From positions 150,238 through 214,237 of the forward strand of contig JAKLEP010000003.1 in assembly GCA_022703055.1 (NCBI GenBank): a DNA stretch of 64,000 nt. Direction: 5' to 3'. Both the position numbers and the translations under genes were made by a program. This DNA comes from Candidatus Omnitrophota bacterium (GTDB lineage: Bacteria > Omnitrophota > Gorgyraeia > VGKH01). The notes under the pieces are model-generated. The model was not told where the DNA came from. It was given only the letters and a program-made list of their open reading frames with translations, and made no database searches. This document shows positions 33,778-59,861 of this stretch, one piece after another (the first letter of the stretch is position 1; each line of letters starts with the position of its first letter).

Positions 33778-33782
33778 CCACC
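33749..33782 (-). other. GC-rich hairpin between tRNA-Ala and the amrS coding start
   Basis: Minus strand GGTGG-at-GCCGAAAC-aatgt-GTTTCGGC-g-CCACC (13 bp). No U-tract follows it. It overlaps the first codons of the longest amrS ORF. Confidence 0.4.
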
Positions 33783-33805
33783 AATCCTTTCATCAATGAA
33801 AGGAC

Positions 33806-33881
33806 TGGTGGAGCAGATGAGATTTGAACTCACGACCCCCTCGTTGCGAACGAGGTGCTCTCCCAACTGAGCTACTGCCCC
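33806..33881 (-). tRNA. tRNA-Ala (anticodon CGC), CCA encoded
   Basis: Reverse complement: GGGGCAGTAGCTCAGTTGGGAGAGCACCTCGTTCGCAACGAGGGGGTCGTGAGTTCAAATCTCATCTGCTCCACCA. It forms a cloverleaf with a G3:U70 pair, the anticodon loop TTCGCAA, and GTTCAAATC in the T-loop. Confidence 0.95.
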
Positions 33882-39113: not shown

Positions 39114-39145
39114 TTACGACCTCATTTATTATAGATATTATATCA

Positions 39146-40693
39146 TTAACGGCGTTTGTTTTCAAATTTTGATAGAGCCTTGTTAACCTCTGCCATCTTT
39201 GACCTTGGAAGCTCCTGCTCTCTTGAGAAAGGCAATATCGGACTGAATCTGTTTTTTATGCTGGAAATTTCTTTTTCTTTGACTATGTGCGGAGTAATAA
39301 ATATAATCAATTCTCTATCCTCGTCCTTGGTTTTACTCCTATATTTAAAGGCGTTGCCTAAGATAGGAATATCTCCCAAAAATGGAACCTTGGTTATAGA
39401 GTCATTAACCCTGTTTCGAATTAGCCCTCCGATAACGATTGTCTCCCCATCTTTAACTCTAAGCAGGGATTTAGTTTGCCTTCTTTCAGGATCCCTGAAA
39501 CTAGTACTAAGGCTACTTGTCGCTGCCTCGCTGACGGTAGGCTCAACAAACATTGTGATATCTCCAGTTTCTTTATTTACCTGTGGGGTAACCCTTAAAG
39601 CGACACCCGTCTCTGACCTCTCGGCCTCTTGAGTTGATAAAGCCGTATTGCCTTCTCCTGACACCGATTGTTTAAGGCCTATCGCCTCATCGGTAACTAT
39701 TTTTATTTCAGCGGTTTCATTGCTTAGTGTCAATATGCGTGGCCTTGCGAGATACCTAGTGTCTGAATCGGTAGCCACAAAATTCAAAGCAATATCTAAA
39801 CCCGCAGCGCTTATCGTACCCATGGTAAACGTCTTACTGGTCACCATACCAGTAGCATCTCCAATGTATCCACCGCTAAAAGGGAATTTAGTTTGTCTTG
39901 ATGCTCCGCTAAAAGTCAAAGAATCATCCGACGGAGAAGCATCCCAATTAACTCCCAGTTTATCAACTAAATTCTTAGCTACATCCAGCATCTCAACTTC
40001 AATTACTACTTGCGGCGTAGGTATATCAAGGCTGGCAATAGTCTTTTCAATTATAGGGAACTGTTCAGGCTTATCAGTAACGACTAAACTGTTGGTCCTT
40101 GAGTCTTCTATAACCTTGCCTTCTTCTGTAAGGACGTTCTCTACTATTTTCTTAATGTTCGTGACTTCAGCCTGCTGCTGTCCTGAACTACTACTCGTAG
40201 AGCTAGTACTCGAGGTACTTTCATCGCTAGTACCCGAGGCTCCGCCAAAATCCTCTTTTCTCTCCATACCATCCAATATTTCAGATTTTATCCTGGAGCT
40301 TGAGACTGACGCATACTTTAGAAAGAAGATTTTCGTCACAGTCTTTAGACCAGCGGTAAGTTCTCTGACTACAAAGATGCTACTACCTTCCTTTATATCA
40401 TAGGTTAAGTTATTAGCAGAAAGGATCTTGTCCAAAGCCTCTTCTACGGGAACATTCTCCAAGAATACTGTTACCGTCCTATTCTTGACCTCATCAGAAG
40501 CTATGAAATTCAAACCTGATTGTTGGGATAGAATCTTCAAAACGTCTTTTAAGTTGGCGTCCTGAAAATCCATTGAGATCATCTTTGAATAATCAGGCAA
40601 GCTAATCCCTTTTGATATCTCCGCGGAAACAGAAGGAATGACAAATACTAGAAATATTCCTATTGAAATCACTCTTACAAAAAATCTTTTCAT
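39146..40693 (-). CDS. pilQ: secretin (PilQ/GspD family)
   Basis: Signal peptide, N-domain SRTNSLVVTD, and C-terminal secretin motif VPFLGDIPILGNAFKYRS...LIIFITPHIV. Confidence 0.85.
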   Translation of the reverse strand: MKRFFVRVISIGIFLVFVIPSVSAEISKGISLPDYSKMISMDFQDANLKDVLKILSQQSGLNFIASDEVKNRTVTVFLENVPVEEALDKILSANNLTYDIKEGSSIFVVRELTAGLKTVTKIFFLKYASVSSSRIKSEILDGMERKEDFGGASGTSDESTSSTSSTSSSSGQQQAEVTNIKKIVENVLTEEGKVIEDSRTNSLVVTDKPEQFPIIEKTIASLDIPTPQVVIEVEMLDVAKNLVDKLGVNWDASPSDDSLTFSGASRQTKFPFSGGYIGDATGMVTSKTFTMGTISAAGLDIALNFVATDSDTRYLARPRILTLSNETAEIKIVTDEAIGLKQSVSGEGNTALSTQEAERSETGVALRVTPQVNKETGDITMFVEPTVSEAATSSLSTSFRDPERRQTKSLLRVKDGETIVIGGLIRNRVNDSITKVPFLGDIPILGNAFKYRSKTKDEDRELIIFITPHIVKEKEISSIKNRFSPILPFSREQELPRSKMAEVNKALSKFENKRR

Positions 40694-40716
40694 TACAACC
40701 TCCTGCTTAATAATGT

Positions 40717-41118
40717 CTATTTCTTCTCAAAATTAATTTTCGGCTTCGCCGTAATAATCTTTCCCCTGTATAAAAATTTGACCCCTTCTTTTGAAATATC
40801 AATGATTTTAGCTTCCTTAATATCATCTCCCAGACGCAAAACCTGTCCATCAATAATTGCCTGAGGATTATCACTAGACCAAATCATGCCCTGAACGACA
40901 AATTCTGGAGGCGCTTCTTGCACTCCCTGAGGCAAGTTTTCGCCCTTCTTCTTTTCTTCTTTTCTAATCTCAGGCATGAAAGGATCTCGATAGCTTACCG
41001 CATCGTAGCTGTTTGTTAACTGGCTATCAAAATCAACTTCGGCCTCATTGCCTTGGGCAAATACGTAAAAACAACTAGCCGATAAAAAAACAAAAAATAA
41101 TAAACACGATTTTCTCAT
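40717..41118 (-). CDS. PilP/GspB-like periplasmic pilus assembly protein
   Basis: Signal peptide. The C-terminal beta-domain pattern QGMIWSSDNPQAIIDGQVLRLGDDIKEAKIIDISKEGV and its position between the pilO and secretin genes. Confidence 0.5.
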   Translation of the reverse strand: MRKSCLLFFVFLSASCFYVFAQGNEAEVDFDSQLTNSYDAVSYRDPFMPEIRKEEKKKGENLPQGVQEAPPEFVVQGMIWSSDNPQAIIDGQVLRLGDDIKEAKIIDISKEGVKFLYRGKIITAKPKINFEKK

Positions 41119-41120
41119 TT

Positions 41121-41666
41121 TTACTTTTTCTTTATATAAACCGCATATAAATTTAAAACTATTTCGCTCTCAGTCGGTGTTTCAGAATGATATGATTGCC
41201 TATTATCAACGTATAATGTCCTGATTTTCAAAAACCCTGTATTTTCAATATCGCTTACTAAATTGCCTAATTTATGGTAATTACTTTCAATTCTTAAAGT
41301 TATCGGCAGCAACTGATAATTCTTTTTATCTAAAGAAGTCTGGGCATCAATAGAATTTATCCGAATATTATTCTCTTTCGCAAAAACAGAGATTTTTTCA
41401 ATAACTCTGTCTGTAGTTAAATTTACCTGAAAATTCTTTTGGAGTTTATCTAACTTATCTTCCTGAGCTTTTAAACTATCAATAAACTCAGTAATTTCGT
41501 TTTCTTTCTTAATCTGGTCTTTTAATAAATTTATTTTTTGTACTTGTCCAACATGCATATTTCTTATAACAACTAAAGCAAGCACAATAATACCTATATT
41601 GGCTAATAAATTCTTATTCTTGATAATCTGTGAAACATCGATTTTTGATAAACTTTTTATATCCAT
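41121..41666 (-). CDS. pilO: PilO-like pilus assembly protein
   Basis: N-terminal TM helix, a coiled coil and a ferredoxin-like C-terminus, located after pilM/N. Confidence 0.6.
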   Translation of the reverse strand: MDIKSLSKIDVSQIIKNKNLLANIGIIVLALVVIRNMHVGQVQKINLLKDQIKKENEITEFIDSLKAQEDKLDKLQKNFQVNLTTDRVIEKISVFAKENNIRINSIDAQTSLDKKNYQLLPITLRIESNYHKLGNLVSDIENTGFLKIRTLYVDNRQSYHSETPTESEIVLNLYAVYIKKK

Positions 41667-41667
41667 C

Positions 41668-43194
41668 TTATTTACAGGTTATGCCGAACTCGCTTACGGC
41701 AAAGTCGTCGATCATTGTTTGTTTTACATAATCCAAATCTATAATATTAAAAATTTTCTTAAATTCTTTATTTTCCTTAATAACAGAGGCTAATTTATTC
41801 ACTGCCTTTATCTGCTCCGCCTCGTCCTCCAAATAGGCTTTTCCTTCAAGCCTAAAAACAAGTTCTGGATCAAGTCTAAGATCTATTCTGGACAACCATA
41901 CTCCCTTTGGCATTAGCGAGGGTAAAGTATTTAATAAAGGCGTGATAAAGGTTGTCTTTTTTGCTTCAGTTAGAGAAGTTAACTGTTCTTCATAAATATT
42001 CTTTATTGACTGCAAGTCAACCAAATTTAGAGAGCTCAATTTATGCTTCAGAGATAACCTTTTTTGAGATAGGTTATTAAGTTTATTTTTAAGCCCAACT
42101 ATCTGGCTATAATCAACGAATAAATAAAACAGAAGAATAAACACCGCCGATATAATTGAAGTGCGAATGACGGTTTTTACAGAAATAGGGACTTCGGGTA
42201 TCTCAACATCTTCCTTTTTCTCTTTTTGCTCCGCTGGCCGCTTCTTCTTATATAGGTCTATCGCTATAGTTGGAGTAAAGGAACTTCTCAGCGCCGCACC
42301 GTAAGCCTTCAATTCACCGATTTTTATGTCTTCTCTTAAACCAACAAGTTCACCTGGGTTGACTAAAGACGTCTTTATATTGAACTCTCTAGTTAAGTGT
42401 TCTTTAATCGATTCATCCCTTTCCTCGCTGAAAACAAAAATTTGATCGATCTCATACTTAGTCGTCTGTCTTCGGTAATAGTCAAAAGAGTGGCGCAGCT
42501 CTTTGTCCAAAACCGCCAATATCGTTTCCTGATCCTTGGCATAAATATCTTTACTAATAGAAGCTAATTTGAAATCTCTTATTAAATGCGGATAACCCTT
42601 CTCGATTATGCAGATATTGCCTTCGTTTCTATTGGTTTCGACAATCGCAATATTGGAGTTGATTTTTGCAAGCTTCTTATAAATTAAAACTCTAAATAAA
42701 CTAAGCGGAGAAGTCTCCATACCTAAGACTTTTAAGCTCGATTGCTCCAGTGAATATATGAATTTGTCCAAGACATCCTGTTTGATTCCGATAAAATGAG
42801 TCTTGAACTTGGCCCCGCTTTTTTCCTTAACTTTCTGCAAAATATAGTCAAAAGATAATAAATCAAGTTTTATAGGGACGTATTTTCTTGCTTCAAAATC
42901 TATAACTGGTTTGATTTCGCGTTGCGGTAATATCGGTATAAGAAATGACCTGAGTAGAACTTCTTTTGCAGGAATAGTAGCAATAACCTCATCTGTTTTA
43001 ATTTGTTTTTCCCTCAGAGTTTTCTGCAGGACAGCCGCCAGCATTATCTGATCAGCGACATCTACCACCTCTGCCTTGTCCTGAGACTCTAAATAAGGAA
43101 TATGATAATGGCAGATGATCCTTTGCTTTTCAACCTCAACAATATTTAAATCTTCTGGCCCGAAATTGATTCCTAGTTTTCTTCTACTTGCCAT
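41668..43194 (-). CDS. pilM: fused PilM (actin-like ATPase fold) / PilN (TM + periplasmic) protein, GspL-like architecture
   Basis: 508 aa. PilM-like N-terminal ~330 aa, a TM helix (IISAVFILLFYLFVDY), then a PilN-like coiled-coil/periplasmic part. Confidence 0.7.
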   Translation of the reverse strand: MASRRKLGINFGPEDLNIVEVEKQRIICHYHIPYLESQDKAEVVDVADQIMLAAVLQKTLREKQIKTDEVIATIPAKEVLLRSFLIPILPQREIKPVIDFEARKYVPIKLDLLSFDYILQKVKEKSGAKFKTHFIGIKQDVLDKFIYSLEQSSLKVLGMETSPLSLFRVLIYKKLAKINSNIAIVETNRNEGNICIIEKGYPHLIRDFKLASISKDIYAKDQETILAVLDKELRHSFDYYRRQTTKYEIDQIFVFSEERDESIKEHLTREFNIKTSLVNPGELVGLREDIKIGELKAYGAALRSSFTPTIAIDLYKKKRPAEQKEKKEDVEIPEVPISVKTVIRTSIISAVFILLFYLFVDYSQIVGLKNKLNNLSQKRLSLKHKLSSLNLVDLQSIKNIYEEQLTSLTEAKKTTFITPLLNTLPSLMPKGVWLSRIDLRLDPELVFRLEGKAYLEDEAEQIKAVNKLASVIKENKEFKKIFNIIDLDYVKQTMIDDFAVSEFGITCK

Positions 43195-51184: not shown

Positions 51185-52306
51185 TTACAACGATTTTAAA
51201 ATCTCTATCGGCGATGGTGGGCACCCCGACGCAGCGCAATATCCGAATTCTTCCGCATATTTCATCGAGCAATTCCCGAGACAAATAACTTTGCCCTTAC
51301 CATCTTTCATTTTAGGCTTGGCTCCTGCAGTGAATTGAACACCCTTAAACAAAATCAGATATATCCACTTTGGCATATATTTGATAAAAAGTCTTGGAGA
51401 CTTCAAAGTCATTTTCATCGCTTCCCTAAGAGAATCGGTACACATGCTACAAGCATTTTTGTTACGGATATTCAACAATCTAAACATTCTAAAATAGTCC
51501 ATATTGGGTAATTTAAACGTTCTTTTTAGGGCGTCTATATCATCTCCGGCAAGCTCCGGCTCTATATCGCCAATACCTATTTTAGAGGCGATATTTATGT
51601 GAGGGACAGAAAACGGATCTATCCCCATCAACCTACAGCAGATTGCATCCACGGCCACAATGTCTTCTCCGAAAACACAAACATTGCTTTTAATTTTCTT
51701 ACCCTGTAATAACGGCCCATCTCCTTCTATCCCCACTATACCATCAACAATAGTCAAATTTGGCTTAACAACCTTTGCCAATTCGGCTATAGGCTCATCC
51801 AAACCCCAAGAAATATGGAAACCTTTTTTATATTCGCTTCTTAGCAAGCCCTTCTGATTTTTCAATCCTAAAGAAACCAAAGTCTGCATATGTGTCTTAA
51901 GCTTGGGGACATTGATATAATAAGATTCAGTTATTATCCGTGGTATTCGTATTTTTCCAAACTTCCAGCTTTTCTCAACTGTTTCAGCCTTTTCAAGATT
52001 CAATAATTGAACGTTTTCTTCTCGGGCAAGCCGCTCAAAGCCGCTTACTTTAAAAGCAAGCTCAACATCGACATTTAAACCGGGTGATTCACCAATGATT
52101 ATTCTCTTTACGCCGGATTCCTTTAGATATTTGATAATAGCTTTTACTAGCCTAAAATCAGTTACTACAGCGGAATGCGGCTTTGCCGCAATAACGATAT
52201 TTGGCTTTATCAATACGGTTTCCCCATTGATACGCGCAGAAACAGTCTTTAAATGCTGGTAGACCTGTTTTGGATTTTTTGTCTTAAAAATATAAACTTT
52301 ACTCAT
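51185..52306 (-). CDS. DUF362 domain protein with a Cys-rich C-terminus
   Basis: N-terminal VLIKPNIV...IIIGESPG pattern of DUF362. C-terminal cysteines CSMCTDS...CLGNCSMKY...CAASGCPP. Confidence 0.65.
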   Translation of the reverse strand: MSKVYIFKTKNPKQVYQHLKTVSARINGETVLIKPNIVIAAKPHSAVVTDFRLVKAIIKYLKESGVKRIIIGESPGLNVDVELAFKVSGFERLAREENVQLLNLEKAETVEKSWKFGKIRIPRIITESYYINVPKLKTHMQTLVSLGLKNQKGLLRSEYKKGFHISWGLDEPIAELAKVVKPNLTIVDGIVGIEGDGPLLQGKKIKSNVCVFGEDIVAVDAICCRLMGIDPFSVPHINIASKIGIGDIEPELAGDDIDALKRTFKLPNMDYFRMFRLLNIRNKNACSMCTDSLREAMKMTLKSPRLFIKYMPKWIYLILFKGVQFTAGAKPKMKDGKGKVICLGNCSMKYAEEFGYCAASGCPPSPIEILKSL

Positions 52307-52470
52307 TTTTTAAAATCACCAGGATCGAATATCGGTTTCTGTGTAAAATATTGCTCTTGCCTGCCGCGCAAAATCGCGACAACAGAGATAACAAGCAAAA
52401 GAACGCTAGTCCCAATAAACATTACTAACCAAATCAAAACATAAAAAATTGACTTGAGAAATCTTATCAT
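52303..52470 (-). CDS. 55-aa single-TM protein candidate
   Basis: MIRFLKSIFYVLIWLVMFIGTSVLLLVISVVAILRGRQEQYFTQKPIFDPGDFKK. It has ATGA overlaps with both the upstream stop (52467-52470) and the downstream DUF362 start (52303-52306). Below the track cutoff. Confidence 0.5.
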   Translation of the reverse strand: MIRFLKSIFYVLIWLVMFIGTSVLLLVISVVAILRGRQEQYFTQKPIFDPGDFKK

Positions 52471-53279
52471 TCTTCTCCAATAACATAGAGATGGTGCGCA
52501 GTCAGCTGCTTAAACCATCTAGGCATATTATCCTCAATATTTGAAAGCACTCTAATAGGAAGATATTTGTCAATATCAGGATCAAGTATGCTCCAAAGCC
52601 ATTTTTTACCGACAGCATTTTTGACATATGTCATGCTGCCTTGTATCATTGAATCTCCCGTATCCAGCCATGGCGGATTATCAACACCGTTGGAATCTAT
52701 GACTCGCAAGCCTGCTTCCTTATAATATTTTTTCATCCCTGTTATGGTCATAAATTTTATATTGCCGTGATCCCAAGGTTTCCTTCTGATTTTATGCACG
52801 AGATTGTGAATCCAATACCCTATTCCATAAGGATTGAGCGTACTGGTATAAACCAACTTTCGCGAAAGTCTTTTCATTTCTAATAATAGGTCTAAAGGCG
52901 ACGGACTGTCGTACTGTTCAATCACCAGATGGTTCCAAACCAAATCAAAAGAATTAGATTCTAAATTTGCATGCAAATCATCATTATGCTCTATTATCTT
53001 TACCCTATCCAACAAGCCTGCTCCCTTCCAGATACTCAGCGCTTCTTGGTAATCTCTTGAATGGACAAGTATCGTAACGTCATAGCCGGCTAAAGCAAGC
53101 AAGACGCTACTAAAAGCAGGAACGCCGCATATAAATGTAGCGTTTAACTCGAGAATTTTTTTAACGTTGTTTATTTTGCAAACTCTATCCAAGACATGGA
53201 ATATGGCCAGCCTTTCATAGGCGCCGCCTAGCCCGTCGTCATATTTATTATATAAATCTAAATTCTGTTTTCTTCCCAT
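52467..53279 (-). CDS. methyltransferase-like (Rossmann-type) protein, divergent
   Basis: 270 aa. KILELNATFICGVP...GYDVTIL resembles a degenerate SAM-binding motif I and acidic loop. Assignment is tentative. Confidence 0.4.
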   Translation of the reverse strand: MGRKQNLDLYNKYDDGLGGAYERLAIFHVLDRVCKINNVKKILELNATFICGVPAFSSVLLALAGYDVTILVHSRDYQEALSIWKGAGLLDRVKIIEHNDDLHANLESNSFDLVWNHLVIEQYDSPSPLDLLLEMKRLSRKLVYTSTLNPYGIGYWIHNLVHKIRRKPWDHGNIKFMTITGMKKYYKEAGLRVIDSNGVDNPPWLDTGDSMIQGSMTYVKNAVGKKWLWSILDPDIDKYLPIRVLSNIEDNMPRWFKQLTAHHLYVIGEE

Positions 53280-53281
53280 TT

Positions 53282-54775
53282 TTAGCAGTTTCTAAATTGT
53301 TTTATTTTTTTGAACTTCTTATTGATAAGTGAAGTAAAAAAATATCTTAAATACCTTTTCCAATTTAATAAATTCTCTTTTATCAAGATATATCTCACTG
53401 GGTTGCGGAAGAATTTATGCATCTCGAATTTTAAGTAAGCTTCGTTACGCAGGCTTTCAATCTCATCAGCAGTTAATAAATCGGTTGATTGCGCGGCGCA
53501 CTTTGGTCTTAATCTGGCATAATAATCCAAAGACGAATTGTCATCTTTATTATAAAATCTCCATAAATCGGTCCCGGGATATGCGGAAGCGATATTAAAA
53601 AGTACGTCATCCAACCCCAAGGAACAAGCAAAGTTGATGGTATCTCTTATTTCTTTTTTTGTTTCGCCAGGCAAGCCGATGACAAAAAAACCAACAGTTT
53701 CTATTTTTAGCTTCTTCATAAGTCTTATTTTCGATTTGACCTCATCTAAAGAGATATCTTTTTTCTTTATGATGTTTCTAAGTACATTGGCATTGCCAGA
53801 TTCAATACCAAGGAACAAACGGTAGCAACCGCTCTCTTTCATTTTGCTCAATAGTTCCTCATCTAAATTAGAGATATGTACGCCGTTGGGTGTGGTCCAG
53901 GCAATATCGATTTTTCGAGCTATAATTTCGTTGCATATATCCATCATTCTTGCCCTATCAAATGTGAGATTATCATCTTCAAAATGTATTTCTTTTATGC
54001 CATGTTCTTTAACTAGCAGCTCTATTTCATCAACAACATTCTGGCAACTTCTTGAGCGCCATCTATAGCCAAAAGAAACATGAATTGAACAAAATATACA
54101 ATTACCCGGACAACCTCTAGACGTCAAAACCGGCATATAGGGGGTTCGCCTCAAAAAGTTGCTATGAGGGTTCTTAGAATGCAAATATTTTTCTTTAGCA
54201 GGAAATAAATCCCATACTGGAAACGGAATATTATCTAAATCAGAAATATAATCTTTTTTAGGATTAACTTTGATAGTTCCATTATTTTTATACGATAAGC
54301 CTTCTACAGTATCAAGGCTTTGTTTTTTTTCTAAATTGTTAACCAATGACAAGAAAGACTTTTCTCCTTCTCCTATGATAACAAAATCAATATTCTTATT
54401 TTTCAAGATCTCATGAGGTATAGCTGAAGGATGCGCTCCCCCCAGTACGACTTTGGCATTGCAGTTTCTTTTTACAAAATCGACCAGCTGTAAAACACTC
54501 GGCGCCTGCACTGAATAGCTGTTACTGATCCCAACTAATTCAGGTCCTATAAGCTTTATCTTCTCTTTTATCATATCCCAGGGCATTCCTATTCTGCACA
54601 TTCCATCTTCATAATTATTGATTGTCTGGTCTTCAGTTAAACAATCAATTACCGAAACCTCATGATTATTTTCTCTCAAAACTGATGCCAAGTATCCTAT
54701 GCCTAAAGGAAAAGTACAAAAAGGAATCTCACCTTGAAGAAAAATTCCGGGCGGAACCATCAACAGGATCTTCAT
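53282..54775 (-). CDS. B12-binding-domain radical SAM protein
   Basis: N-terminal cobalamin-binding-like domain (MKILLMVPPG...GIGYLASVL) and SRGCPGNCIFCS (Cx3Cx2C). Confidence 0.85.
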   Translation of the reverse strand: MKILLMVPPGIFLQGEIPFCTFPLGIGYLASVLRENNHEVSVIDCLTEDQTINNYEDGMCRIGMPWDMIKEKIKLIGPELVGISNSYSVQAPSVLQLVDFVKRNCNAKVVLGGAHPSAIPHEILKNKNIDFVIIGEGEKSFLSLVNNLEKKQSLDTVEGLSYKNNGTIKVNPKKDYISDLDNIPFPVWDLFPAKEKYLHSKNPHSNFLRRTPYMPVLTSRGCPGNCIFCSIHVSFGYRWRSRSCQNVVDEIELLVKEHGIKEIHFEDDNLTFDRARMMDICNEIIARKIDIAWTTPNGVHISNLDEELLSKMKESGCYRLFLGIESGNANVLRNIIKKKDISLDEVKSKIRLMKKLKIETVGFFVIGLPGETKKEIRDTINFACSLGLDDVLFNIASAYPGTDLWRFYNKDDNSSLDYYARLRPKCAAQSTDLLTADEIESLRNEAYLKFEMHKFFRNPVRYILIKENLLNWKRYLRYFFTSLINKKFKKIKQFRNC

Positions 54776-54776
54776 T

Positions 54777-55844
54777 TCAAGCCTTCCTCATTATTCCTAA
54801 TAGACATTTTGCGTTTAACAACATATTCGTATATGAAGAATTTGCTAAAGGACAAAAACAATCACTATTTTTTATTTTCTTGCGTATATCAACTGCCCTG
54901 CTGCTTCTCCAGATTTTCTTGAAATCATAACCCGCCTCTTTAAGATTTCCTATTTTCTCTGATTTTATACAGCAGGCCCAGACATCGCCATTAGGAATGA
55001 TATGGCAAGATGCTAATCCGGCATAACAAGGGATGACCCGTTTCTTATCCTGCAAAATCTTTTTTACCATTTCGTAATACCTTATCCTAAATGCCTCAGT
55101 AGTTTTAGCCAAACCTGAAAACTTAATTTTTTTAATACTATCTACTAAGAAATCTATGGCCTGACAATAATCTTCAACCGCTGGAGTAATATCGGAACCT
55201 ACAGTACCCAACTCTTCCCTTTCTTCTGCGATCTCGGTGATATAGGAATCAGGGCCCAATTCATTCATCACAAAATTATAGATCTCCGGTAATCTTTTTA
55301 CATTAAACTTAGAGATAACGGTGTGCACGCCTAAAACCAAATTATGCGCCTTCAAGCTTTTCAAGGCTCGATAAGTATTCAACGCCTTAACGAAATTTCC
55401 TTCAACTCCCCGAATAAAATCATGCTTTTCTTTGATATCGTCCAAAGACAGATTAATTACAACTTTTGTTTTTTTGCAGATATCTAAGATTTTTTTGACT
55501 TTATCCGGAATAACTTCGCATAATAAACCATTTGTGGGTATGGTGATTACTTTTGGCTGGCAATTTATATAAGCACTTTCGCAGATATCCACAAAATCAT
55601 TTCTTAAGAAAACTTCCCCTCCGCTAAAGGTTATCCAATATATCTGGTTTTTTCCGATAGATTTAAAGACCTGACCAAGCTCATCCCTGCTTAATTCTTC
55701 GCTCTTCTTATTATATATATGGCAAGTTTGACAACGGGAATTGCACCTAAAAGTAACACTAACCGTCAAATTCATAGGGAAAGGCGGATTTAGGTTAAAC
55801 TTCCTGGCTAAATTGTATTTAATAATTTTAATCGGAATAATCAT
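54777..55844 (-). CDS. radical SAM / SPASM-type protein
   Basis: FRCNSRCQTCH motif, FSGGEVFL, and a C-terminal Cys cluster CYAG...ACCIKS...CFCP. The track ORF starts at 55925; the ATG at 55844 makes an ATGA overlap with the upstream GT2 stop. Confidence 0.85.
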   Translation of the reverse strand: MIIPIKIIKYNLARKFNLNPPFPMNLTVSVTFRCNSRCQTCHIYNKKSEELSRDELGQVFKSIGKNQIYWITFSGGEVFLRNDFVDICESAYINCQPKVITIPTNGLLCEVIPDKVKKILDICKKTKVVINLSLDDIKEKHDFIRGVEGNFVKALNTYRALKSLKAHNLVLGVHTVISKFNVKRLPEIYNFVMNELGPDSYITEIAEEREELGTVGSDITPAVEDYCQAIDFLVDSIKKIKFSGLAKTTEAFRIRYYEMVKKILQDKKRVIPCYAGLASCHIIPNGDVWACCIKSEKIGNLKEAGYDFKKIWRSSRAVDIRKKIKNSDCFCPLANSSYTNMLLNAKCLLGIMRKA

Positions 55845-56722
55845 TGTAGCTGCTTGGTTGATTTTGCGGTTTGCCAAATGTAAGGATTTTTCTTTAATAT
55901 ATAAATATCGAAAGTGCCAAGGCAACGCGCCCAGAATTCTAGGAGCATAACTCCGAAAGTCCAGAACAAATTCTTAATATTGAACCTTACTGCGCGCGGC
56001 AATAACCTAAGGATTCTAAAAATTTTATTTGTTGAAACCTCATATCCGGTTTTTTCTTTAAGCCATAGATGACCGGAGCAAATTCTGCGTCTCTGCATTA
56101 TGAAATCCTTTATATTCTCCGGCCCCTTGTTTCTTACCACTGCCTCGGGAACATACTTTAACTTTAATCCTTTTTGAGAAATTATTGCTTCAAAGCTAGC
56201 CTCATCAACTGCGCTATCTCCCGGGATACTTTCAACAATATTCCTGAAGGCGATCATTTCTCCCAATTTTGGCGCTTCCAGAGCGACAAAATGGTGCAGC
56301 TGCCAAAGCAAATTCACCGCAAAACCGATAAAAGTATCGGAACTGTTAACAGGTAATGACCTAGTACCAGTCATGCCGATTTCTTTGTCTAAAAACGGAG
56401 CGACAAGATTTTCTATGGTATTTTTATCCGGCAAGATATCCGCGCTTGAAACAACCACGATTTCTTCCTCGGCTAAATTAAGGAATTCATTTATTGCTAT
56501 AGATTTTCCCTTTCTCTGGTTATGCGCAAACAAAGTGATGCGATTGTCTGTTCTCGCCCATTCTTCAACAATCCTGTTGGTATTATCGGTACTACCGCTA
56601 GACACTACTACTATCTTATTAATTTTTACTTTAAATAAGTCCTGTTTAACCAGACTCTCTAGCAATTGGCCGATATTGGCCTGCTCATTATATGCAATAA
56701 TTCCTATGCTGCAATTAATCAT
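55841..56722 (-). CDS. family 2 glycosyltransferase
   Basis: IGIIAYNEQANIGQLLESL...VVSSGSTDNT...SADILP, a GT-A fold with a DxD-like motif. Confidence 0.8.
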   Translation of the reverse strand: MINCSIGIIAYNEQANIGQLLESLVKQDLFKVKINKIVVVSSGSTDNTNRIVEEWARTDNRITLFAHNQRKGKSIAINEFLNLAEEEIVVVSSADILPDKNTIENLVAPFLDKEIGMTGTRSLPVNSSDTFIGFAVNLLWQLHHFVALEAPKLGEMIAFRNIVESIPGDSAVDEASFEAIISQKGLKLKYVPEAVVRNKGPENIKDFIMQRRRICSGHLWLKEKTGYEVSTNKIFRILRLLPRAVRFNIKNLFWTFGVMLLEFWARCLGTFDIYILKKNPYIWQTAKSTKQLQ

Positions 56723-56725
56723 AAA

Positions 56726-57445
56726 TTATTTAATAAAAAAGCTGCTTAATTTAAGCCACAAAACCTTCCAAACTGCCTCAAAAACAATTTTCCTGCTCAT
56801 CTTGGAACGGCCTTGCTCACGTTCGTAAAAGACGATTGGGAACTCTTTGATTTTGAATCCCTTCCTAAATAATTTAAATACGACTTCTACCTGGAATGCA
56901 TACCCGTTAGAAATAATTTTATCCAAATCAAGCGACCTTATCGCTTGAGTCTTTATACATTTAAAACCGCTGGTAGCGTCTTCAATAGGTATCCCGGTTA
57001 CCATCCTAACATAGATGTTGGCTATCTTGCTAAGCAGCAATCTTCTGAATGGCCAGTTATCCACCCTGACACCATTAACGTATCTACTGCCAATAACCAC
57101 ATCGGAATATTCCGTCTCTTTTAACATATCTGCGAGGTATTTTGGGTCGTGAGAGAAATCTGCGTCCATCTGGATAACAAAATCCATCCCCTGTGAGATA
57201 GCATATTTAAAACCTTCGATGTAGGCAGTGCCGAGGCCGAGCTTGCCGTTTCTGTGGATTATATACAGATTCTTAAACGTTTCTTTTAATCTATCGACGA
57301 GCTGACCAGTACCGTCAGAAGAATTGTCATCAATTACAGTTACGAAGAAACCCGGGTTATGGTTAAAAATTTGGAAAATTATATTCTCGATAGAATCTTT
57401 TTCATTATAAGTCGGGATAAGGACCATTACTTTCTTGAATTCCAT
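56726..57445 (-). CDS. polyprenol-phosphate glycosyltransferase (Dpm1-like GT2)
   Basis: VLIPTYNEKDSIENI, VIDDNSSDGT, QMDADFSHDP. Confidence 0.8.
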   Translation of the reverse strand: MEFKKVMVLIPTYNEKDSIENIIFQIFNHNPGFFVTVIDDNSSDGTGQLVDRLKETFKNLYIIHRNGKLGLGTAYIEGFKYAISQGMDFVIQMDADFSHDPKYLADMLKETEYSDVVIGSRYVNGVRVDNWPFRRLLLSKIANIYVRMVTGIPIEDATSGFKCIKTQAIRSLDLDKIISNGYAFQVEVVFKLFRKGFKIKEFPIVFYEREQGRSKMSRKIVFEAVWKVLWLKLSSFFIK

Positions 57446-57463: not shown

Positions 57464-57507
57464 ATGGCCCCTGCAATCTCATTTTGTAAAAGATGTGCAG
57501 GGGCCAT
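57464..57507 (-). other. 12-bp perfect hairpin between the basic-repeat protein gene and the GT2 gene
   Basis: ATGGCCCCTGCA (57464-57475) pairs with TGCAGGGGCCAT (57496-57507) around a 20-nt loop. A T-run follows it only on the plus strand, so it is not a classical minus-strand intrinsic terminator. Confidence 0.5.
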
Positions 57508-57519
57508 TTTTAAAACAGT

Positions 57520-57756
57520 TTATCTCCTCTTTTTACCTCCACGCACCATCTTGGCGCAAGAGATGTCACCTTTCTTATCGATGAAATAGAGGAATCCTAC
57601 TTTCTTCTTTACCCCTACCTTTGCTACCTTTTCCGGCTTTCCGCCTTTTTTCTTTCCGCGTGCCATCTTAGCTCTGGAAACATCGCCTTTTTTGTCGACG
57701 AAATAAAGGTAGCCTTTCACCTTTTTGACTCCAACCTTTGCGACTTTCATTGCCAT
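57520..57756 (-). CDS. 78-aa highly basic protein made of two ~37-aa tandem repeats
   Basis: The repeats are KVAKVGVKKVKGYLYFVDKKGDVSRAKMARG and KVAKVGVKKKVGFLYFIDKKGDISCAKMVRG. A strong GGGGGG SD lies upstream. Confidence 0.65.
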   Translation of the reverse strand: MAMKVAKVGVKKVKGYLYFVDKKGDVSRAKMARGKKKGGKPEKVAKVGVKKKVGFLYFIDKKGDISCAKMVRGGKKRR

Positions 57757-57774: not shown

Positions 57775-58602
57775 CTATGTCCCAATTTTAACAGGCTCTA
57801 AAATATTTTTTAGCATCGCCGTAGCTGAAAGCACTGCCAAGAAACTTGTCTTAGGATTATCCGGACAAGGAAGATTGTCAGTGCAGGTCTTTATAGCACC
57901 GAAATCTCCCTCCGCGATAATTTCATGGGAATTTCGTTTATATTCCGGAGAAGTAACTATCTTAACTTTAATCTTATCTTTGCAGCCGCTGGCTAAGCTA
58001 AGTGTTGCGGCAACATTGATATTCTGAGGGAATAATTCGACTGCTTTATCGACGCTTCCTTCAAAAACAATAGTTTCTTTTTGAATATGATCCAAATCAA
58101 AATTATTTTTCAATAGGTATTCGTTGCCTTTTAATCCAGAAGGCGGTTTTCTGGTAGTAATAGTAATATTATTAATGTTTGAGAAAGATGCCGCTTTAAT
58201 CGCATCTAGACCGGCGATCGCTCCTGAAGGAAAATATATATGGCAACTTTTATCTTTAGCTAATTTAAAAACATCCTGGGCTTCAAGCATCCCGCCAACG
58301 CTCATCACTAATATATCTTTGCCTGCTTCAACGACGGATTTGGCAATAGACTTGGAAGACTTTGCGCTTGCAGACTCAATAACAAAATCACATCTTTTGA
58401 TTAAATCGTCTAAAGTTGAAACGACAATATTGTTTATTTTTAATTCGCTAGCTAAATTATGAGCCTTTTCAAGATTGACATCATAGATACCCGAAAGTTC
58501 TGCCTTATCACCGAAGTTAACCACGACTGCCTTAGCCAATCTTGAACCTATTGCCCCACAACCCACAATACCTATTTTTAATTTTGTTTTTGTCGCTGTC
58601 AT
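57775..58602 (-). CDS. nadX: aspartate dehydrogenase-like NAD(P)-binding protein
   Basis: IGIVGCGAIGSRLAKA Rossmann N-terminus and a size and C-terminal pattern typical of L-aspartate dehydrogenase. Moderate certainty. Confidence 0.6.
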   Translation of the reverse strand: MTATKTKLKIGIVGCGAIGSRLAKAVVVNFGDKAELSGIYDVNLEKAHNLASELKINNIVVSTLDDLIKRCDFVIESASAKSSKSIAKSVVEAGKDILVMSVGGMLEAQDVFKLAKDKSCHIYFPSGAIAGLDAIKAASFSNINNITITTRKPPSGLKGNEYLLKNNFDLDHIQKETIVFEGSVDKAVELFPQNINVAATLSLASGCKDKIKVKIVTSPEYKRNSHEIIAEGDFGAIKTCTDNLPCPDNPKTSFLAVLSATAMLKNILEPVKIGT

Positions 58603-59861
58603 TTTACGATTATATTATCAATTAATCTTGTCTTTCCTACCCAAACCGCCAAAGCAATAAGCGTGTTTTTATGTATTTTATTGACCGGCTTAAGCGTATT
58701 GAAATCAACGCAAGCTACATAATCTATTTTGGCATTTTTCTTAGTTTTTATTAGATCTTTTATGTGGGCGATAATTGCAGGGCTTGAACTTACCCCGCTT
58801 TCTATCATTTGCCTGGCTTTTCTTAGGCTTTCCGATAGAACAGCTGCATCATCTCTCTCTTGTGGGCTAAGATATTTATTCCTTGAGCTCATGGCAAGAC
58901 CATCTGTTTCGCGTACAATCGGCATCATTTTTATTTTAACTGGGATATTCAAATCTCTTGTCATCTGCTGGATCACTTTTACCTGCTGTGCATCTTTCTG
59001 CCCGAAATATGCGATATCCGGCTGGACGATATTAAATAATTTAGACACGATTGTTGCTACGCCTTTAAAATGGCCTAGCCGCGAAGCACCGCATAATCCC
59101 TTCGTAATTTCTTCAACATTAACATAGGTAAGATATTGTTCGGGATACATTTCTTTTACCGAAGGATAGAAAATAACGTCCACGCCTGCAAGGCGCGCTA
59201 ATTTTTCATCACGTTTTAAATCTCTTGGGTATTTTTTAAAGTCTTCGTGTGGACCAAACTGGGTAGGATTGACAAAGATACTTATTATAGAAACATCGCA
59301 ATCTTTTTTTGCCTGGCGCATCAAAGCAAGATGACCTTCATGCAGATAGCCCATTGTAGGGACAAAACCGATAGTCTTGCCTCTTTTCTTTAAATCCCCG
59401 GCTATTTCCTGAATCCTGGAGATCTTTTTGACTGTCTTCATTTTGTTATTCGGTATTACAATATTGGGCGCGATTTCCCTTAAAGGTCTTAATACAAAAT
59501 CTCTTTCATTCATCCTCGGATGTGGGACTATTAATTCTTTTGAATTGATTATAGCCCGATCGTAAAGCAAGATATCTAAATCAATAGTCCGTGGACCGAA
59601 ACGCACAGTTTTCTTTCGTCCAAGCTGCTTTTCGATATTCTTTAGTGTATCCAGTAGTTTGCGCGGCCTTAAATTGGTATCTGCCTCCAAAACTGCATTC
59701 AGAAATTTGCCCTGCTTTGGCCCGCCGACGGGATCGGTTTCGATTATCCTAGAAAGTTTTCTCAATCTTATTTTATTATCTTTTAAAAGAGCTAATGCTT
59801 TTCTGATATTCTCTCTTCTGTTTTTTAGATTTGAACCTATGCCTAGATATATTCTCACCAC
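58599..59861 (-). CDS. folK-panC: fusion of 6-hydroxymethyl-dihydropterin pyrophosphokinase (HPPK) and pantoate--beta-alanine ligase
   Basis: HPPK N-terminus: IYLGIGSNL...ETDPVGGP...DLDILLY...PHPRMNERDFVLRPL. PanC C-terminus: GFVPTMGYLHEGHLALM, IFVNPTQF. Confidence 0.85.
   Translation of the reverse strand: MVRIYLGIGSNLKNRRENIRKALALLKDNKIRLRKLSRIIETDPVGGPKQGKFLNAVLEADTNLRPRKLLDTLKNIEKQLGRKKTVRFGPRTIDLDILLYDRAIINSKELIVPHPRMNERDFVLRPLREIAPNIVIPNNKMKTVKKISRIQEIAGDLKKRGKTIGFVPTMGYLHEGHLALMRQAKKDCDVSIISIFVNPTQFGPHEDFKKYPRDLKRDEKLARLAGVDVIFYPSVKEMYPEQYLTYVNVEEITKGLCGASRLGHFKGVATIVSKLFNIVQPDIAYFGQKDAQQVKVIQQMTRDLNIPVKIKMMPIVRETDGLAMSSRNKYLSPQERDDAAVLSESLRKARQMIESGVSSSPAIIAHIKDLIKTKKNAKIDYVACVDFNTLKPVNKIHKNTLIALAVWVGKTRLIDNIIVK

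Follow-up and report, generated by a model that had tools for sequence, protein, structure and literature searches.

The window, the whole 64-kb stretch of DNA analysed here, comes from an uncultured Omnitrophota bacterium and holds seven open reading frames at 51185-57445, all on the minus strand. The earlier note had described a cluster of seven genes at this position, and independent gene annotation of the identical contig in the public record recovers all seven, a 55-aa ORF among them. Three ATGA overlaps, already pointed out before and read here directly in the sequence, join the second glycosyltransferase gene (GT2b) to that of a radical SAM/SPASM enzyme and couple the 55-aa ORF on both sides, to the genes for a methyltransferase-like (MT-like) protein and a DUF362 protein. 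The seven-gene set is a real operon. The upstream boundary of the island is a conserved GC-rich hairpin on the minus strand (57466..57505), directly downstream of orf78, with two perfect 10-bp arms and a folding energy of −30.8 kcal/mol (z = −6.45); it is retained, with compensatory changes, in three related loci (L006, L007, and L001). orf78 stays beside AspDH, set apart from the island by the conserved hairpin, even where DUF2079 intervenes. Genes for a flippase, a GT-C, an SDR, an initiating transferase, or NDP-sugar synthesis are all missing from the window cluster itself, and profiles for SDR, flippase-like, and GT4 proteins found no match elsewhere within the 64 kb.

Two glycosyltransferases and two radical SAM enzymes

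The first gene in the direction of transcription encodes GT2a (56726..57445, minus strand), a Dpm1/DPMS-like putative polyprenyl-phosphate hexosyltransferase of 239 aa with a PF00535 domain (3e-24). Among solved structures, the dolichol-P-mannose synthase (DPMS) of P. furiosus (PDB 5mlz) scores highest, at 116 bits, followed by ArnC at about 46 bits; the top NCBIfam matches, AglJ, PpgS, and ArnC, all lie below the cut-off. No hydrophobic or TM segment is found in GT2a. Judged by these matches, GT2a is clearly of the Dpm1-like, polyprenyl-phosphate type, as had been proposed, which points to a lipid carrier. GT2b (55841..56722, minus strand, 293 aa) is a Glyco_tranf_2_3-type GT2 with PF00535 (3.6e-23) and PF13641 domains and a QRRRI motif at 56081-56095. 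In the PDB it most resembles 6yv7, a family 2 glycosyl transferase (55 bits), and weak matches to Glyco_transf_21 (ceramide glucosyltransferase-type) occur among its relatives.

The radical SAM enzyme coupled to GT2b (54777..55844, minus strand, 355 aa from ATG) combines PF04055 with a C-terminal SPASM/twitch domain (PF13186) and carries its CNSRCQTC motif at 55722-55745. The family has more than 120 homologues in bacteria and archaea, at 52-60% identity and none of them named, with four invariant cysteines (C273, C292, C329, and C331). The AF2 model (pLDDT 89.5) and the sequence contain no N-terminal RRE domain, for which there is no room because the radical SAM motif begins at residue 34. 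Foldseek neighbours comprise peptide-modifying enzymes as well as sugar- and nucleotide-modifying ones, including BlsE and DesII, and this mixture counts against the sugar-tailoring reading.

The peptide maturases ScmE, WgkB, MftC, SkfB, CteB, and SuiB are indeed among the best NCBIfam and Foldseek matches of the SPASM enzyme, GT2b weakly matches MftF and SunS, and small ORFs exist. These features would suit a RiPP cluster in which a precursor of 55 or 78 aa is matured by the SPASM enzyme, C-methylated by the B12 radical SAM enzyme, and glycosylated by a GT2. We nevertheless give this very little credence, since no RRE domain fits in front of the radical SAM motif and since GT2b and SDR, with no peptide gene, are the neighbours of the SPASM gene throughout its family. 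Moreover, the 55-aa protein consists of a TM helix and a short invariant tail, and its gene follows the MT-like gene in one subfamily only; orf78 keeps to AspDH and the hairpin irrespective of the intervening DUF2079. With neither an RRE domain nor a precursor peptide, the RiPP reading, which the earlier note had raised as an alternative, is not supported.

The second radical SAM enzyme (53282..54775, minus strand, 497 aa) is of the cobalamin-binding-domain type (class B; PF02310 and PF04055), with its CPGNCIFC motif at 54089-54112. Its top NCBIfam matches all fall short of their cut-offs: the Sden_1168 P-MT at 263 bits (cut-off 575), HpnJ at 201 (577.6), and BchE at 178 (481). Among solved proteins the sugar diol-dehydratase AprD4 comes closest, with a match of 91 bits confined to the radical SAM core. 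Relatives of this B12 enzyme occur in glycan loci, where tandem paralogues are common; the enzyme belongs to a glycan-associated family of its own and is an optional addition to the gene set.

The MT-like, 55-aa, and DUF362 proteins

The MT-like protein (52467..53279, minus strand, 270 aa) belongs to a small family (43 matches; 76 representatives at E ≤ 1e-30) and matches Pfam only below threshold (PF08241, 17.7 versus a cut-off of 21.2). In its AF2 model (pLDDT 86), for which Foldseek ranks the sugar O-methyltransferases RebM and AtmM highest, the protein is predicted to have a genuine class I methyltransferase fold, which agrees with the divergent methyltransferase suspected earlier. The canonical GxGxG loop is absent, and the invariant residues (G16, G18, Y21, E22, E44, D76, D112, H158, H162, H171, D200, D206, H262, and H263) include a His/Asp cluster whose histidines could indicate metal-dependent, non-methyltransferase chemistry.

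The sole integral membrane component of the cluster is the single-pass 55-aa protein (52303..52470, minus strand), with a TM segment at residues 15-33. In L006, L007, and L089, too, its gene follows that for the MT-like protein, and the C-terminal tail RGRQEQYF.QK.IFDPG is invariant. Between the window and L006, 21 codon changes are synonymous and 12 non-synonymous, a pattern that shows purifying selection on this ORF.

The last gene encodes a DUF362 protein of 373 aa (51185..52306, minus strand; PF04015 at 6.5e-47). Its Cys-rich C-terminal extension, noticed before, holds six cysteines (residues 286, 289, 342, 346, 357, and 362) and includes the motifs ACSMC (51440-51454), CLGNC (51269-51283), and GCPP (51215-51226). 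This type of tail recurs in five other loci (L017, L091, L094, L107, and L115), and other DUF362 members associated with the same gene set have 2x[4Fe-4S] ferredoxin motifs in its place. K34, N36, T49, K137, H139, K149, N150, H164, and D188 are invariant, and DUF362 belongs to the same Pfam clan (CL0471) as the N-terminal domain of LarA. Pfam thus bore out the domains first assigned by eye, and both radical SAM motifs are where they had been read.

Genomic neighbourhoods and related systems

The earlier note had made its reading depend on co-conservation of the genes. All seven are syntenic in two relatives, L006 and L007, but they are not one fixed unit. L001 occupies the same chromosomal site (AspDH-orf78 / island / UvrA) and retains only GT2a-GT2b-SPASM-B12 of the window set, with DUF2079, SDR, methyltransferase, PMT_2 (GT-C), a second B12 radical SAM enzyme, and an extra GT2 as additions; such a shared start and swapped remainder is typical of a variable surface-glycan island. 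We then anchored neighbourhoods on the SPASM gene without bias, using simple ORF calling and clustering, in the only 30 loci that had at least three genes on each side. SDR genes were present in 22/30, GT2b in 17/30 (directly beside the SPASM gene and on the same strand in 14/30), GT2a in 12/30, flippase-like genes in 9/30, MT-like in 7/30, DUF362 in 4/30, and B12 radical SAM in 1/30. The recurrent cassette comprises a Dpm1-like GT2, a membrane-type GT2, the SPASM enzyme, an SDR, and the divergent class I methyltransferase, sometimes with DUF362 or a flippase-like protein. Its conserved core is GT2b, the SPASM enzyme, the MT-like protein, and the usual SDR partner that is missing from the window cluster; DUF362 and the B12 enzyme are optional additions.

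The variable distal part of the island and the rarity of the B12 gene beside the SPASM gene (1/30 loci) could also reflect unrelated adjacent genes with separate functions and no common pathway. To this we assign only a minimal probability, given the single strand, the tight packing with three ATGA overlaps, and the co-occurrence repeated across phyla. Fusions of MT-like with DUF362 and of SDR with MT-like bind the accessory genes together, and a B12 radical SAM enzyme fused to a class I methyltransferase was also seen.

The cassette is found inside polysaccharide loci with GT-C enzymes, WbaP, ManC, Wzy, GtrA, and GT4. Flanking genes include the GT-C types PMT_2, YfhO, TMEM260, and DUF2079, as well as GtrA, LPG_synthase_TM, Wzy_C, MBOAT/SGNH, GT4, Wzx, and GT9, and some cassettes contain an FPP/GGPP synthase (polyprenyl synthase) and a UbiA-family prenyltransferase. 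In Megamonas funiformis, the order is WbaP-ManC-GT2a-GT2b-SPASM-SDR-MTlike-flippase-like, followed by a 1132-aa multi-TM protein and Glf.

This context resembles polyprenyl-phosphate-sugar systems (Dpm1/DPMS; ArnC-ArnT; GtrA/GtrB/GtrV; mycobacterial PpgS-Rv3632-Rv3779), in that GT2a matches the catalytic domains of DPMS and ArnC and the relatives' cassettes adjoin GtrA/flippase-like and GT-C proteins (PMT_2, YfhO, DUF2079, TMEM260). Those systems, however, lack radical SAM enzymes, DUF362, and this MT-like family, whereas the window cluster encodes neither a flippase nor a GT-C and its GT2a has no TM helices. DprE1/DprE2, which epimerise decaprenyl-phosphoryl-ribose, likewise oxidise and then reduce a sugar on polyprenyl phosphate with an SDR as the reductase, and the UbiA-family prenyltransferase and polyprenyl synthase of some cassettes add to the likeness; the oxidant there is a flavoenzyme rather than a radical SAM enzyme, and in the absence of any sequence relationship this is an analogy only.

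Tailoring of a membrane-lipid head group is a possible, though unlikely, alternative, analogous to the hopanoid BHT-cyclitol ether (HpnI/HpnJ/HpnA/HpnL) or archaeal calditol (Cds). In this reading, GT2b would attach a sugar to a membrane lipid alcohol, contraction or rearrangement by one or both radical SAM enzymes would turn that sugar into a carbocycle, and the flippase-like protein would carry the product outward. The gene types parallel hpnA, B, H, I, J, and L, which make BHT glucosamine and cyclitol ether: an SDR (best NCBIfam match HpnA, 87 bits), two GT2s (weakly matching HpnB and HpnI), a plain and a B12 radical SAM enzyme (HpnJ, 201 bits), and an LPG_synthase_TM/TIGR00374-type flippase-like protein. 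This last type we take to be that of HpnL as well. HpnJ and Cds are established examples of radical SAM ring contraction on lipid-bound sugars; the Glyco_transf_21 matches of GT2b relatives and the FPP/GGPP synthase and UbiA genes would also fit. Yet GT2a is clearly of the polyprenyl-phosphate type, the cassettes are surrounded by GT-C, WbaP, Wzy, and GT4 polysaccharide genes and also occur in archaea, and every hpn cut-off is missed widely (HpnJ 201 versus 577.6, HpnH 48 versus 225, HpnI 21 versus 310). No squalene-hopene cyclase occurs among the annotated ORFs, and the hopanoid reading, a known locus that would have accounted for the cluster, is not supported. Calditol synthase (Saci_1489, Sulfolobus) is likewise a radical SAM enzyme, of the stand-alone kind, whose substrate is a glycosylated membrane lipid; it is proposed to act once a glycosyltransferase has attached the sugar. 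Its homologues are reported mainly from acidophiles, whereas the SPASM family occurs widely in neutral anoxic environments and in the gut.

Aminoglycoside tailoring (AprD4/AprD3 deoxygenation, BtrN dehydrogenation, GenK C-methylation) pairs a radical SAM enzyme with an SDR reductase on a glycoside, and the SPASM/twitch architecture resembles that of BtrN-type dehydrogenases. AprD4, from apramycin biosynthesis, as the top solved B12 match, BlsE and DesII among the SPASM matches, and the natural-product sugar methyltransferases RebM and AtmM as nearest MT-like structures would be consistent with a cluster for a soluble specialised metabolite (aminoglycoside, cyclitol, or nucleoside-like), with a free glycoside as the substrate of the radical SAM enzymes and the methyltransferase. 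We hold this to be improbable. The substrates of the aminoglycoside enzymes are soluble pseudo-oligosaccharides of actinomycete secondary metabolism, and identity to these enzymes is low; the Dpm1-like GT2a points to a lipid carrier, and the cassette is embedded among genes for surface polysaccharides, flippase-like proteins, and GT-C enzymes. No scaffold enzyme (cyclitol synthase, NRPS, or PKS) lies inside or adjoining the cluster, and the very wide distribution of the cassette over phyla, at 52-60% identity, does not resemble typical secondary metabolism.

Proposed pathway

We consider it reasonably likely that the island is a variable cell-envelope glycan locus that builds and radically tailors a polyprenyl-phosphate-linked sugar at the cytoplasmic membrane face. 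The envelope glycolipid or glycan tailoring first suggested for this cluster gains support from sub-modules that recur in cell-surface polysaccharide loci. No gene of the seven attains the NCBIfam equivalog cut-off of any characterised family, as expected of a system with no characterised counterpart, and beyond the established family of GT2a we infer all steps from superfamily and context only.

GT2a would transfer a hexose, plausibly mannose because ManC adjoins the Megamonas cassette, from an NDP-sugar to polyprenyl phosphate, and GT2b would add or extend a sugar on the lipid-linked acceptor. The SPASM/twitch enzyme may then abstract hydrogen from the sugar and, by dehydrogenation or dehydration of the kind seen in BtrN or AprD4, yield an intermediate that carries a keto group or is rearranged; in most cassettes the adjoining SDR would reduce it to an epimerised or deoxygenated sugar. 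In the Omnitrophota version, where the SDR is absent, the cobalamin-type enzyme directly downstream of the SPASM gene would act instead (C-methylation or rearrangement). The Fe-S/Cys-rich DUF362 protein may provide a redox or epimerase step, the MT-like protein may O-methylate the sugar, and the 55-aa protein could serve as a membrane anchor for enzymes that are otherwise soluble. For export and final transfer, the pathway would depend on flippase and GT-C genes, which lie in the island of relatives but were not found in the 64-kb window. The core cassette is uncharacterised and is shared by many anaerobes, bacterial and archaeal, among them Megamonas funiformis, a gut bacterium that can be cultured.

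Gene content and chromosomal site of the cluster

Our own ORF calls recovered, all on the minus strand, the seven genes that an earlier note had placed between positions 51185 and 57445, and independent gene calls on the identical public sequence yielded the same set. In order of transcription, they encode two family 2 glycosyltransferases (GT2a, 56726-57445, 239 aa; GT2b, 55841-56722, 293 aa), a radical SAM enzyme with a SPASM domain (SPASM-rSAM, 54777-55844, 355 aa), a B12-binding radical SAM enzyme (B12-rSAM, 53282-54775, 497 aa), a methyltransferase-like protein (MT-like, 52467-53279, 270 aa), a 55-aa transmembrane (TM) protein (52303-52470) and a DUF362 protein (51185-52306, 373 aa). Pfam searches confirmed the domains named in that note, namely two GT2 domains, radical SAM plus SPASM, B12-binding plus radical SAM, and DUF362, and gave no match for the 55-aa protein. 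Direct reading of the sequence showed, as had been described, the CNSRCQTC and CPGNCIFC motifs, three start/stop overlaps of the form ATGA and a cysteine-rich tail on the DUF362 protein.

The upstream neighbours are housekeeping genes, comprising dapF, dapA, dapB, an aminotransferase gene, an HPPK-PanC fusion and aspartate dehydrogenase, together with a gene for a basic 78-aa repeat protein, orf78. The fusion (58599-59861, minus strand) is a single 420-aa protein that unites HPPK with pantoate-beta-alanine ligase, of the folate and pantothenate pathways, and it also occurs in L001, L006 and L007, the loci of three close relatives at the same chromosomal site. The very basic orf78 product (57520-57756, minus strand) consists of two copies of the repeat KVAKVGVKK.KGYLYF[VI]DKKGD[VI]S.AKM.RG and may possibly bind nucleic acids; in the window and in all three relatives alike, its gene directly follows that of aspartate dehydrogenase and is itself followed by a conserved hairpin. 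This hairpin (57466-57505, minus strand) has a folding energy of -30.8 kcal/mol (z = -6.45) and is kept with compensatory changes in the three relatives; we read it as the operon boundary. At the other end, uvrA starts 9 nt past the DUF362 gene. Scans for promoter and terminator consensus sequences performed no better than on shuffled sequence, and an Rfam search returned no riboswitch.

The earlier note had treated the seven genes as a unit, and this view holds in two of the relatives, in which all seven lie in the same order between the aspartate dehydrogenase-orf78 pair and UvrA, with B12-rSAM proteins 89% and 71% identical to that of the window. The third relative, L001 (B12-rSAM 67% identical), retains only GT2a-GT2b-SPASM-B12 at this site. 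It carries a DUF2079 gene before this core and, after it, genes for an SDR, a methyltransferase, a PMT_2 (GT-C) protein, a 73-aa ORF, a GT2 and a further B12-rSAM. With its fixed site, conserved core and exchangeable distal part, the locus thus behaves like a surface-glycan diversity locus.

Elsewhere in the window, the minus strand encodes at 31185-33881 a Memo-AMMECR1 fusion (513 aa) overlapping a radical SAM gene (380 aa), which together make up a trio of the AmmeMemoRadiSam type in which two members are joined; a tRNA gene occupies 33809-33881. A type IV pilus/type II secretion set (36169-43194, minus strand), with GspF, GspE carrying an MshEN domain, a secretin, PilO and a PilM-like protein, has its upstream part in the region where the GC content of the window is lowest (0.35-0.37, around 40-44 kb).

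The two radical SAM enzymes

SPASM-rSAM was the most informative anchor for neighbourhood analysis. It matches PF04055 with 57.4 bits and PF13186 with 31.8 bits (cut-off 21.5), and its CxxxCxxC core together with a C-terminal cysteine-rich auxiliary-cluster domain makes it a SPASM/twitch enzyme. Across 34 family members, C273, C292, C329 and C331 never vary, and C291 is kept in about 90%; since only four C-terminal cysteines are invariant, versus the seven of the full SPASM motif, a single twitch-like auxiliary cluster is suggested. More than 120 homologues share 52-60% identity with it (430-480 bits), in Desantisbacteria, Nitrospiraceae, Chloroflexota, Aminicenantes and Desulfatiglans and, among archaea, in Promethearchaeota, Methanoperedens and Methanomassiliicoccales. 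None of these homologues bears a specific name and no NCBIfam equivalog cut-off was reached. Neither the SPASM nor the MT-like profile found anything relevant in viral contigs, and the plasmid collection yielded a single distant match (29.5% identity). Two further radical SAM proteins are encoded on the minus strand of the window: a 438-aa protein (9453-10769) that matches the SPASM-family profile with 124 bits and the B12 profile weakly, and a MiaB/RimO-like 427-aa protein (28467-29750) with UPF0004 and radical SAM domains.

The structural neighbours of SPASM-rSAM found with Foldseek, at TM-scores of about 0.6, include the peptide enzymes SkfB, CteB, SuiB and anSME as well as the sugar and nucleotide enzymes BlsE, MoaA, DesII and viperin, and because of this mixture the fold does not identify the substrate. 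A RiPP pathway is a possibility that the earlier note had proposed to exclude; neither an N-terminal RRE domain nor an adjacent precursor peptide gene, as in systems of sactipeptide, ranthipeptide or mycofactocin type, was found. In the model (pLDDT 89.5), a single N-terminal helix leads into the radical SAM barrel, the radical SAM motif starts at residue 34, and an RRE domain is absent. The genes that neighbour the family are GT2b and SDR, with no precursor conserved alongside. Of the small ORFs at the cluster, one, the 55-aa protein, is a conserved probable TM anchor and the other behaves like a member of the neighbouring operon. We therefore rejected the RiPP reading; it finds little support, as do the readings of a soluble natural product and of chance adjacency.

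B12-rSAM has an N-terminal B12-binding domain (PF02310, 69.7 bits) and a radical SAM core (PF04055, 88.3 bits) with CPGNCIFC at residues 222-229, the architecture of class B enzymes. Its scores lie below the NCBIfam cut-offs for Sden_1168 (263.5 versus 575), HpnJ (201 versus 577.6), BchE (178.5 versus 481), PhpK (135.5 versus 600) and AprD4 (109.9 versus 500). The best of these matches, to the P-methyltransferase Sden_1168, raised a phosphonate reading, which was rejected on that score (263 against 575) and on the lack of a PEP mutase in the cluster. Many homologues at 39-52% identity occur in Omnitrophota, Thermodesulfobacteriota and several archaeal lineages (Woesearchaeota, Aenigmarchaeota, Nanoarchaeota, Hadarchaeales and Methanoperedenaceae), to which a profile scan of GTDB added Planctomycetes, Bathyarchaeia and Patescibacteria. 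No relative above 47% identity was found in the GTDB genomes, so that the cluster's own lineage appears only in metagenome collections. Fusions of B12-rSAM with a class I methyltransferase (766-769 aa) were seen in two proteins, P0076 and P0091, the latter from an Omnitrophica MAG.

The B12-rSAM contexts that we inspected proved to be polysaccharide clusters, whose genes include GT2, GT4, Wzx, SDR, sulfotransferase, GtrA/YfhO and PMT_2. Within five genes on either side of the anchor at 47 GTDB loci anchored on this family, we counted a further B12-rSAM in 18, a GT2a-type gene in 15, an SDR in 13, a GT4 in 12 and SPASM-rSAM in 11. The most serious rival reading is a membrane glycolipid head-group pathway akin to hopanoid cyclitol ether or calditol synthesis. 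Its enzyme types, those of hpnA/B/H/I/J/L, parallel the ones found here, and there is precedent for radical SAM enzymes that contract the ring of a lipid-bound sugar; however, the equivalog scores for HpnH, HpnI, HpnJ, HpnA and HpnB all fall far under their cut-offs, which led us to reject membership of the hopanoid hpn system, and the neighbours are polysaccharide genes. No squalene-hopene cyclase is present among the annotated ORFs of the window. As for a link to calditol synthase (Cds, Saci_1489), PTO1314 (TIGR03961) gave a weak match to the core only.

Glycosyltransferases and distal proteins

GT2a (PF00535, 3e-24) aligns over residues 4-226 with residues 23-241 of 5mlz, the dolichol-phosphate mannose synthase of P. 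furiosus, at 116 bits and over its whole length; ArnC structures reach about 46 bits. This end-to-end alignment of the GT-A catalytic domain is that of Dpm1/DPMS/ArnC-type GT2 enzymes, and GT2a is accordingly a predicted polyprenyl-phosphate glycosyltransferase by type, with scores under every curated equivalog cut-off (AglJ, 75.7 versus 325; PpgS, 60.5 versus 370; ArnC, 48.6 versus 529). No hydrophobic stretch in GT2a reaches the threshold for a TM segment, and the operon also encodes the separate 55-aa TM protein. For GT2b, the closest solved structure is the family 2 glycosyl transferase 6yv7, a membrane mannosyltransferase from Pyrobaculum whose fold is a minimal version of the cellulose-synthase-like one.

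The AF2 model of the MT-like protein (pLDDT 86.2) shows the Rossmann-like, seven-stranded fold of class I methyltransferases. Foldseek returned 854 PDB matches at E<=1e-3; the best 50 of the 854 are methyltransferases without exception, and at their top stand RebM and AtmM, which O-methylate sugars. With PF08241 (Methyltransf_11), the window protein scores 17.7 against a gathering threshold of 21.2, and relatives pass at 29.4. Motif I reads E44-x7-G52, not the canonical GxGxG, and H158, H162, H171, H262, H263, D200 and D206 are invariant in the family. The family is small: a word-indexed search gave 43 matches, and 76 of 1.84 billion representatives match at E<=1e-30. Its relatives were found in three contexts, GT2-SPASM-(MT)-SDR-MTlike-55aa, GT-C-GtrA-x-MTlike-GT2-rSAM-SDR and GT2-SPASM-DUF362-MTlike-flippase-like-SDR-GT2-GT4-GT2-...-GT9, none of which contains a B12-rSAM. 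Natural fusions of MT-like with DUF362 (P0309) and of SDR with MT-like (P0330, P0411, P0415) provide independent support for a recurrent gene set, described below as the cassette; P0348 is also listed among the MT-like/SDR fusions.

The 55-aa protein is the sole integral membrane protein of the cluster. It is kept, with an invariant tail and under purifying selection, 3' of the MT-like gene in one subfamily. DUF362 and the N-terminal domain of LarA share Pfam clan CL0471. We compared the DUF362 protein with LarA for R75, H108, H174, K184 and H200; the invariant H139-K149-H164 of DUF362 (spacings 10 and 15) resembles H174-K184-H200 of LarA (10 and 16) in spacing, the residues themselves being unaligned. 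The DUF362 profile found no LarA chain in the PDB, and as a sequence-level match to LarA was not obtained, the possible relation stays a lead. Cassette-associated DUF362 proteins end either in a cysteine tail of the window type or in two ferredoxin-type CxxCxxCxxxCP motifs, which points to a redox role. Tandem DUF362 paralogues lie beside radical SAM genes at two loci (L017, 1623-3931; L107, 10512-12849), one copy of each pair having the window-type tail and the other two ferredoxin-type [4Fe-4S] motifs.

A recurrent cassette and a candidate pathway

Metagenome contigs were scanned with the SPASM profile, followed by our own ORF calling, BLASTP clustering and re-scoring by family HMMs, and neighbours were counted within five genes on either side at 30 loci with at least three genes on each side. 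An SDR (PF01370) was present at 22 of the 30 loci, a GT2b-type gene at 17, a GT2a-type gene at 12, a flippase-like LPG_synthase_TM gene at 9, MT-like at 7, DUF362 at 4, GT4 at 3 and B12-rSAM at 1. The gene directly adjoining SPASM-rSAM on the same strand was GT2b in 14/30 and SDR in 12/30. Canonically, the genes run GT2a-GT2b-SPASM-SDR-MTlike-(GT2 or flippase-like) and are flanked by genes for PMT_2-type GT-C proteins, Wzy_C and MBOAT/SGNH O-acylation. In a subgroup of four loci (L101, L105, L133, L165), genes for an FPP/GGPP synthase (PF00348) and for a prenyltransferase of the UbiA family (PF01040) accompany the cassette, a hint that in these organisms the pathway has a prenyl carrier or prenylated acceptor made specially for it. 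A related gene block, GT-C (TMEM260-like)-GtrA-315aa-MTlike-GT2-rSAM-SDR, lies at about 5850-12573 of L090 (Logan SRR18595299_15694), where its surroundings comprise dozens of short ORFs that lack annotation, together with genes for a Zot-like ATPase, a beta-helix protein and an SNF2 helicase. L090 may be a mobile element or virus with a glycan-modification module; PHROGs and viral-contig scans did not support a viral origin.

Compared with the recurrent cassette, the window cluster is a variant that differs in three respects. The place behind SPASM-rSAM, usually that of the SDR, is taken by a glycan-associated B12-rSAM; DUF362 and the 55-aa membrane protein are added at the cluster end; and the SDR, flippase-like protein and GT4 are missing, their profiles finding no match anywhere in the 64 kb.

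The cassette is also present in a cultured human-gut bacterium, Megamonas funiformis (loci L116, L176 and L177). The SPASM protein of L116 is WP_370763610.1, and the gene order of the M. funiformis locus is WbaP-like phosphoglycosyl transferase, ManC, GT2a, GT2b, SPASM, SDR, MT-like and flippase-like, then a 1132-aa multi-TM protein, UDP-galactopyranose mutase (Glf), an acyltransferase, DUF4422 and a GT2. The L116 contig has a GC content of 25%, and its SPASM protein occurs in 335 blocks of the sequence collection. As M. funiformis can be cultured, the function of the cassette is open to experiment.

The earlier note had proposed an envelope glycolipid or glycan tailoring pathway. Alongside the domain identities, gene order, co-occurrence statistics, fusions and polysaccharide context that we observe, we infer all catalytic steps of such a pathway and the identity of its sugar. 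GT2a would load a hexose onto polyprenyl phosphate, and GT2b would lengthen this lipid-linked sugar. SPASM-rSAM would then generate a sugar radical, leading to a keto or rearranged intermediate, which in other cassettes the SDR would reduce, so that on balance the sugar would be epimerised or deoxygenated, in analogy to BtrN, AprD4/AprD3 and DprE1/DprE2. In the window cluster, B12-rSAM would add a C-methyl group or bring about a rearrangement, and a redox or epimerase step might fall to DUF362. O-methylation of the sugar would be the task of the MT-like protein, and the 55-aa protein would keep the soluble enzymes at the membrane.

A more far-reaching, tentative and rather doubtful reading is that the SPASM/twitch family and the SDR (here DUF362) form oxygen-independent machinery by which a hexose attached to polyprenyl phosphate is oxidised and re-reduced, deoxygenated or ring-contracted, an anaerobic counterpart of DprE1/DprE2 or HpnJ/Cds chemistry. 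Its product would be an undescribed surface sugar or carbocycle of many anaerobic bacteria and archaea, including Megamonas of the human gut, which in Omnitrophota the cobalamin radical SAM enzyme would also C-methylate. All components belong to known superfamilies, and lipid-carrier glycan assembly is an already known kind of system; the central radical SAM family is large and highly conserved and has no named member. Our literature searches found no description of the gene combination or cassette, nor is it listed in a review from 2026 on radical SAM enzymes that modify lipids.

In uncultured microbes, which are often episymbionts or associated with a host (for example Omnitrophota, DPANN archaea, Patescibacteria and the Negativicutes of the gut), surface glycans shape the interactions with partners, phages and hosts. 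Now that a cultured host is known, the cassette has a stronger appeal for radical SAM enzymologists and glycobiologists. Once characterised, the SPASM family would extend radical SAM carbohydrate chemistry by a new reaction and probably bring a new sugar to light; DUF362 and a small, unusual family with a methyltransferase fold would gain a function as well.
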